A stretch of 64,000 nucleotides of DNA from Chrysomallon squamiferum (lineage: Eukaryota; Animalia; Mollusca): contig CM022679.1 in NCBI GenBank assembly GCA_012295275.1, positions 24,552,001-24,616,000 on the forward strand. Direction: 5' to 3'. Below are positions 4,899-5,350 of this stretch, in pieces (positions within the stretch are counted from its first letter, which is position 1; each line of letters opens with the position of its first letter). Below the pieces are notes generated by a model. That model was not told the DNA's origin and searched no databases. It worked only from the letters and a program-made list of their open reading frames with translations. The position numbers were made by a program, and so were the translations under genes.

Positions 4899-4937
4899 AG
4901 TCACTTTCACGTGATTTGCATGGCCCTTAAAAGAGCC
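4899..4937 (-). promoter_or_regulatory. Histone-mRNA-type 3' processing signal: stem-loop GGCTCT-TTTA-AGGGCC (4922-4937), then ATGCA, then purine-rich HDE-like GAAAGTGACT (4908-4899)
   Basis: 6-bp stem and 4-nt UUUA loop fit the histone consensus GGYYYU-UUUH-ARRRCC; 38 nt after the stop. Same element at 7522, 10115, 12714, 15307, 17914, 20513, 23108, 25712, 28316, 30916, 33520, 36120, 38707. Confidence 0.75.
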
Positions 4938-4975
4938 GCCGTTTCAAAGGCATAATTATGTGCTTTCGGCTCATT

Positions 4976-5278
4976 TCACTGCATGTATTCGTCATCGGAT
5001 TCCGATTCGGGCGAAACGATTGACAATCGCATCCTCAGTTCGGCCACCGTTTCTGCTTTCCAGCAGGCGTATTCGTAGTAGGAATTACGCACACCCTCAA
5101 CAGTGGCCATTTTCAGGCGCAAGTTGTATCGGAACGATTTGTGGTTGTCCACTCTGGCTTTGTCGTATCGGAGTTGCAGGTCTTCCAGCTTGCTGTTCAG
5201 CATGACAATCTGCTCGCAGGCTCGTCTGAAGCGATTCTCTGTTTCGTAGAGTGCAGCGTACAGACTGAATTTCTCCAT
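4976..5278 (-). CDS. Orphan intronless 100-aa predicted helical/coiled-coil protein with acidic C-tail (MEKFSLYAAL...ESESDDEYMQ), copy 1
   Basis: ATG at 5278 (the track's 110-aa start is a TTG); GC-richer than flanks; TATA and cap site upstream; frame kept in diverged copy 14. Confidence 0.8.
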   Translation of the reverse strand: MEKFSLYAALYETENRFRRACEQIVMLNSKLEDLQLRYDKARVDNHKSFRYNLRLKMATVEGVRNSYYEYACWKAETVAELRMRLSIVSPESESDDEYMQ

Positions 5279-5311
5279 AGTTTTCCAATGACTTTCTGTA
5301 AATTCCAATCA

Positions 5312-5350
5312 AAACTGAATGTGGAAGAAACAGAAGCGCCTACCTTATAT
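5312..5350 (-). promoter_or_regulatory. Pol II core promoter of the orphan ORF: TATAAG (5349-5344) and CATTCAGTT cap/Inr (predicted TSS ~5320); present in every unit
   Basis: TATA lies 29 nt upstream of the A in CATTC; predicted 5' UTR ~42 nt; unchanged in diverged copy 14. Confidence 0.65.

Follow-up and report, generated by a model that had tools for sequence, protein, structure and literature searches.

Does a gene in a 64-kb stretch of Chrysomallon squamiferum DNA (hereafter the window) encode a non-histone protein whose mRNA is finished in the manner of a histone mRNA? That only histone mRNAs end with a stem-loop is stated in passages of three sources (PMC4604434, PMC5054213, and PMC5100578). 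A preliminary description of the window had nevertheless proposed that an intronless, multicopy, non-histone gene at 4899..5350 is a client of SLBP and U7. The gene and its signals are as follows:

5363..5367, minus strand: TGTCA promoter motif, common to 25/25 family genes within 160 nt upstream
5344..5349, minus strand: TATA-like box TATAAG, from sequence
5317..5321, minus strand: CATTC initiator-like motif with a putative start site, from sequence
4976..5278, minus strand: intronless 100-aa ORF, predicted two-helix hairpin and acidic disordered tail (ORF and AlphaFold)
4938..4970, minus strand: upstream hairpin, by prediction taking up the 5' flank of the stem-loop and leaving the stem intact; also in homologous locus L001, the closest relative
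4922..4937, minus strand: histone-type 16-nt stem-loop, 6-bp stem including one U-G pair, UUUA loop
4917..4918, minus strand: CA, predicted cleavage site 5 nt past the stem, from sequence
4899..4908, minus strand: HDE-like, purine-rich element whose AAAG is at +15; a small hairpin is predicted to enclose it
4745..4791, minus strand: two AATAAA hexamers (4791-4786 and 4750-4745), a possible poly(A) alternative, from sequence

The layout given in the preliminary description was recovered from the sequence. TATAAG and CATTC are 28 nt apart start to start (29 nt from the preceding A), the stem-loop lies 38 nt past the stop of the 100-aa intronless ORF, CA ends 5 nt after the stem at 4917, and the purine-rich element begins 14 nt after the stem at 4908. 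The single U-G pair among the six of the stem and both AATAAA motifs, at 4791-4786 and 4750-4745, are also present. The window stem-loop has a predicted energy of −8.5 kcal/mol and a P(G2-C15) of 0.91–0.97, and it fits the published stem-loop regular expression (Brooks et al., PMC4604434). Across the two strands of the 64 kb, this expression matches 12 times, every time behind a copy of the 100-aa ORF, against a chance expectation of 5.6e-6 per 60 nt; the stem-loop therefore occurs beyond chance in the window. The Histone3 search that the preliminary description had suggested as a check gave 15.1 bits (E 2.6) for the window copy, below the Rfam cut-off of 34.

The encoded protein was compared with sequence and structure databases. 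A single-sequence search identified 48 relatives, and a profile search identified 1,069 clusters at 50% identity (E ≤ 0.001). The named animal members are all molluscs (Littorina, Mya, Mytilus, Mizuhopecten, Dreissena, and Ostrea) and are labeled, without exception, as hypothetical, uncharacterised, or low-complexity. Labels of ELM1 and PhnB carried by some members at JGI were without Pfam support and were set aside. One member was found in a symbiont MAG and is probably host contamination. Sequence similarity places the window protein in a large, uncharacterised family of invertebrates. Pfam returned zero matches for the window protein and, for 59 relatives, a single SWIM domain, carried by a longer gene model, plus sub-threshold matches; a PDB sequence search gave no match. 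The AlphaFold model has helices at residues 2–43 and 47–88 and a disordered tail (pLDDT 90.5). The protein had been described as having no recognisable histone fold, and both the lack of Pfam and PDB sequence matches and a model of two 42-residue helices, rather than the three-helix histone fold, agree with this. A Foldseek search against PDB and viral structures yielded nothing at E ≤ 0.001. VIA returned only generic antiparallel helical hairpins (Z up to 12.2, TM about 0.8, identity 4–14%), with the top rows tied and Z below the ~13 that helical bundles attain by arrangement alone. A mollusc-rich cluster in the Atlas, at 0.83, is a lead only, and a scan of viral contigs found no family relatives.

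Codon comparisons place the family protein under purifying selection, with a median dN/dS of 0.13 over 53 unsaturated gene pairs; in 353 of 406 pairs, synonymous sites are saturated or dS is above 1.5. The most conserved positions, from an alignment of 146 stretches from 145 representatives, include an R-Y pair ahead of the turn, R-Y-x-x-R behind it, and the stretch E-G-x-R-N-x-x-Y-x-Y-A. Median charge across the 145 representatives is +7 in the core and −7 in the tail.

Whether homologues keep the stem-loop was a check named in the preliminary description. A metagenome scan returned 35 loci, of which L034 (a degraded copy) and L035 (a spurious match) were left out; at L011, the upstream copy was counted, the other copy running off the contig. 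The stem-loop is kept in 31 of the 33 remaining loci, 27–58 nt past the stop (median 35), and shuffled downstream regions match the pattern in 0.16%. In a survey restricted to histone genes, the metazoan stop-to-stem-loop median is given as 30 nt (10.64898/2026.10.14.759114). The relaxed pattern used here was devised after viewing the sequences, with Rfam as an independent check: Histone3 matches lie behind the ORF in 28/33 loci (E 3.5e-6 to 0.12), with homologue scores of 21.5–33.6 bits, none attaining the gathering score of 34. The published regular expression fits 19/31 homologues, 6/31 being fully six-paired as well, and all six stem pairs form in 14/31.

Position conservation was assessed in 26 non-redundant genes, including the window gene, since several loci are near-duplicates. 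Invariant in 26/26 are G2, C5, U6, loop U1 and U3, A11, G12, C15, and the C at −1, as are the pairs G2-C15 and U6-A11. An A-rich 5' flank, AAC, adjoins the stem in 24/26 genes, where the window and L001 carry GGC. The survey of metazoan histone genes names G2-C15 and loop U3 as diagnostic (10.64898/2026.10.14.759114), and SLBP is reported to contact loop positions 1 and 3 (PMC4604434). Across 30 aligned elements, 91.7% of cells pair, and 14/180 cells have double-sided pair changes. The covariation score of 0.257 was equaled by 0/500 shuffles and exceeds all slid controls; pair-type and pair-count measures did not exceed shuffles in these elements (238/500 and 469/500). The rows are related, so these values are not probabilities, and persistence of the stem-loop across branches with saturated synonymous sites is the stronger argument. 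When the window and L001 were withheld from training, a family model recovered L001 at E 0.004 and missed the window element at E ≤ 1. On these sequence measures, the window copy is among the weakest family members; the family signal is strong, and use of the window copy's own signal is less certain.

Three family genes, comprising both L026 copies and L027, have no stem-loop and are possibly replication-independent variants:

L026:1428-1763, minus strand: family member without stem-loop
L026:3755-4072, plus strand: family member without stem-loop
L027:175-630: family member without stem-loop

At L012:908-923, there is a second stem-loop with an HDE, 255 nt behind the first and derived from a duplicated 3' end. 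A motif scan of viral contigs gave three stem-loop matches, two in phage DNA between opposite-strand genes and one inside a long ORF; they were treated as chance and were of no use as histone controls. At L038:1505-1520, a long ORF on a viral contig of 16 kb contains a perfect histone-type stem-loop, one match in 2.9 million contigs and likely due to chance.

The second histone-type signal is the downstream element. In 25 of the 26 genes, an AAAG begins between +13 and +18, with low conservation flanking it on both sides; L032 is without it. AAAG is complementary to the conserved UCUUU box of U7, here a generic box rather than that of this species' own U7; a conserved UCUUU box in the histone-binding region of U7 is described in PMC5054213. 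The window HDE is predicted to lie in a hairpin of −7.3 kcal/mol, compared with −3.0 kcal/mol for shuffled sequence, and this tendency is weak family-wide (16/26 above the shuffle mean). Mouse H4-12, H1t, and H2a-614 pre-mRNAs are reported to have a hairpin-buried HDE that SLBP opens (PMC1635294).

Patterns of stem weakening were also found. Stem pair 4 is unpaired in 14/30 aligned copies, the mismatch flipping between C-A and A-C, and stems with this mismatch are predicted at −4.5 to −5.2 kcal/mol; histone stem-loops are reported at −7 to −10 kcal/mol (10.64898/2026.10.14.759114). In one branch, clade B (L013-L031), 13 loci were folded. In 12 of these 13, and also in L012 and L032, the predicted P(G2-C15) of the mature end does not exceed 0.3; at L002-L007, L009, and L010 the stem-loop is predicted to be free (P 0.98–1.00). 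In clade B and L032, folding predicts that a conserved segment 15–20 nt upstream of the stem-loop base-pairs with the 5' flank and the first stem bases, excluding the histone hairpin. In the window, at L001 and L032, and in clade B, the native upstream sequence occludes the 5' flank far more than its shuffles do. The genes with the competing segment (L013-L031 and L032) are also mismatched at stem pair 4, and in these folding models the two features could together form an SLBP-gated RNA switch, which is possible. Most of clade B has a further conserved motif immediately 5' of the competing segment. A poly(A)-type hexamer occurs within 300 nt in 15/25 genes; these hexamers lack a conserved position and are frequent in sequence this rich in A+T.

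The genomic setting of the gene is a tandem array:

4407..39443: tandem array of a ~2.6-kb unit (ORF, 7SL, and 5S), with 14 ORF, 13 7SL, and 13 5S copies
5914..6210, plus strand: 7SL (metazoan SRP) RNA gene, divergent from the ORF, 250 bits
6614..6732, minus strand: 5S rRNA gene, 119 bits
38761..39063, minus strand: diverged copy 14, 90% amino-acid identity, same stem-loop, from copy comparison
40903..41040, plus strand: truncated inverted gene fragment without ATG and without stem-loop, from copy comparison

The 14 copies counted in the preliminary description are there, spaced 2,587–2,608 nt apart, but they are not all intact: copies 11 and 12 have a frameshifted ORF, and copies 4 and 6 have an extra T in the loop. 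These lesions may be sequencing indels, and 10/14 copies are intact in ORF and loop alike. Inner units are 98.8–99.7% identical and the last partial unit 92.8%. The stem-loop is indeed unchanged in copy 14, as had been stated, but at ~6–7% divergence this alone carries little weight. Each unit joins a protein gene to 7SL and 5S genes, both Pol III (13 each), which the preliminary description had overlooked. A literature search found no paper on 5S-7SL tandem linkage in molluscs. No 7SL was present in the fetched homologous loci; L032 and L033 are set among 5S genes, and Mytilus and Artemia histone units are described as linked to 5S (PMC13525598). The linkage to 5S and 7SL, the TGTCA promoter motif (25/25 genes), and the possible RNA switch are new here. 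Elsewhere, 15/34 contigs have the same sequence at both termini as direct repeats, as expected of collapsed tandem units. In Dreissena, neighbouring locus tags occur in runs on two chromosomes (67-Mb and 153-Mb sequences). Protein clusters of the family at 90% identity have up to 135 members. In the contigs of X5, the unit is far deeper than some flanks, a depth that does not equal copy number. The inverted truncated copy at 40903-41040 adjoins exon-like pieces of a coiled-coil gene (41937-42272). The window also holds two related CARD-domain ORFs on the minus strand, at 51089-51589 (E 8.5e-5) and 57288-57773 (E 1.7e-6).

A TATA-like box lies 61–90 nt ahead of the ATG in 25/25 family genes. 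TGTCA, a putative TALE-homeodomain-type site, is found on the sense strand in the 160 nt before the ATG in all 25, often 13–18 nt ahead of the TATA box, and its 40 occurrences compare with a shuffle mean of 11.9 and maximum of 21. Assembled contigs of four RNA runs (X1-X4, one study) cover the ORF at a depth of about 1–28, with promoter and spacers covered alike and 7SL at hundreds to 40,000. In X1-X4, ORF, promoter, and spacer are covered at similar low depth, and this coverage was taken as DNA carry-over. These runs speak neither for nor against expression at other stages.

Coding selection, a stem-loop and AAAG at histone-like distances, and tandem arrays in other animals are observed. The proposal of a non-histone SLBP/U7 client gains comparative support from 31/33 stem-loops, covariation, and the positioned AAAG, and on this sequence evidence we consider it probable that the family is such a client. 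SLBP and U7 likely direct the cleavage of its mRNAs, which would then lack a poly(A) tail. Pol II would start about 25–30 nt below the TATA box, SLBP would bind the hairpin, U7 would pair with the AAAG element, and the cut would fall near 4917; the mRNA would then be made and destroyed on the histone schedule. A literature search, with subscription journals largely outside its coverage, found no report of the family or of any non-histone client. If the reading is true, a conserved high-copy non-histone client breaks the histone-only rule, an abundant mRNA class is under-counted by poly(A)-selected transcriptomes, and an unstudied protein is tied by evolution to the histone schedule. Given an SLBP/U7 client, the many copies, the short intronless gene, and TGTCA could serve an expression burst in the fast-dividing cells of the cleavage embryo, with the protein, a predicted hairpin that has a conserved basic-aromatic tip and an acidic tail, binding nucleic acid or chromatin alongside new histones; this is tentative and somewhat doubtful, and the embryo link is one that we infer. 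More speculative, and in our estimate rather unlikely, is a "sixth" histone-locus-type family of molluscs and perhaps other invertebrates, encoding a non-histone hairpin protein, in tandem, TALE-driven in cleavage embryos, with a hairpin-gated SLBP/U7 mRNA and a requirement alongside histones in chromatin assembly.

Several other explanations were weighed. The signal may be used in a weakened or switchable form, with conditional SLBP binding, two mRNA forms, and a window copy that is perhaps mostly polyadenylated. This overlaps with our best explanation and is possible, though on balance we do not favour it. Mismatches at pair 4 (14/30, with C-A/A-C flips), occlusion of the 5' flank beyond shuffles in clade B, L032, L001, and the window, and the two AATAAA motifs in the window all point that way, and H2A.X, with either a stem-loop or a poly(A) end, is a described precedent (PMC4604434). 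However, the stem-loop is predicted to be free in L002-L007, L009, and L010 (P 0.98–1.00), the clade-B loci are related rather than independent, and folding disregards protein binding. It is quite unlikely that SLBP is recruited by the hairpin to control translation, to store the RNA, or as a decoy, with U7 leaving that RNA uncut. SLBP binding alone needs no AAAG at a fixed distance, as found in 25/26 genes between poorly conserved flanks, even if the stem-loop positions are better conserved than the HDE and AAAG is short and missing in L032.

A different kind of alternative, concerning origin and role and not the 3' end, is a selfish or virus-derived cassette (e.g., Polinton-related) that has co-opted histone processing and does nothing for the host, multiplying within 5S/7SL arrays. 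We regard this as unlikely, given the chromosomal clusters in Dreissena, the purifying selection, the lack of relatives among viral contigs, and the fact that neither the unit nor, on visual inspection, the other loci (most contigs 1–3 kb) had a recognisable transposase or capsid ORF. The 5S linkage in the window and at L032 and L033 would suit a cassette, terminal repeats of contigs could be circles, and L034 holds a degraded stem-loop copy near a BIR fragment. The stretches concerned in L034 are 1056-1327 and 2132-3645; besides the BIR-domain fragment, other fragments near the copy look Polinton-like. Chance resemblance, or a protein that is an unrecognised histone, is very improbable: the low Rfam score in the window would fit, but stem-loops in 31/33 loci compare with 0.16% of shuffles, the stem covaries, and the protein has two 42-residue helices (pLDDT 90.5), no three-helix histone fold, and no histone family match.

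A client of SLBP and U7 that is not a histone can be set beside known systems. Like histone genes (RF00032, HDE, SLBP, and U7), the family has intronless genes with continuous ORFs, a TATA promoter, short UTRs, a 16-nt stem-loop ~30–35 nt past the stop with, outside the window and L001, mostly an AAC flank, a purine-rich element ~15 nt downstream, and tandem, 5S-linked arrays. Unlike them, its protein is not a histone, its stems frequently have a pair-4 mismatch or an A-U first pair, its scores fall below the Rfam cut-off, a hairpin upstream competes with the stem-loop in many copies, and its processing is predicted from sequence. It resembles the bimorphic mRNAs of H2A.X in that AATAAA follows the window stem-loop and 15/25 genes have a poly(A)-type hexamer, and differs from them in its non-histone product, unconserved hexamer position, and A+T-rich background. 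The predicted hairpin around the window HDE recalls mouse H4-12, H1t, and H2a-614, a likeness that is weak family-wide (16/26). The protein itself is similar to generic helical hairpins (ESCRT-III core, prefoldin, LSD1 tower, and SMC arms) in shape only.
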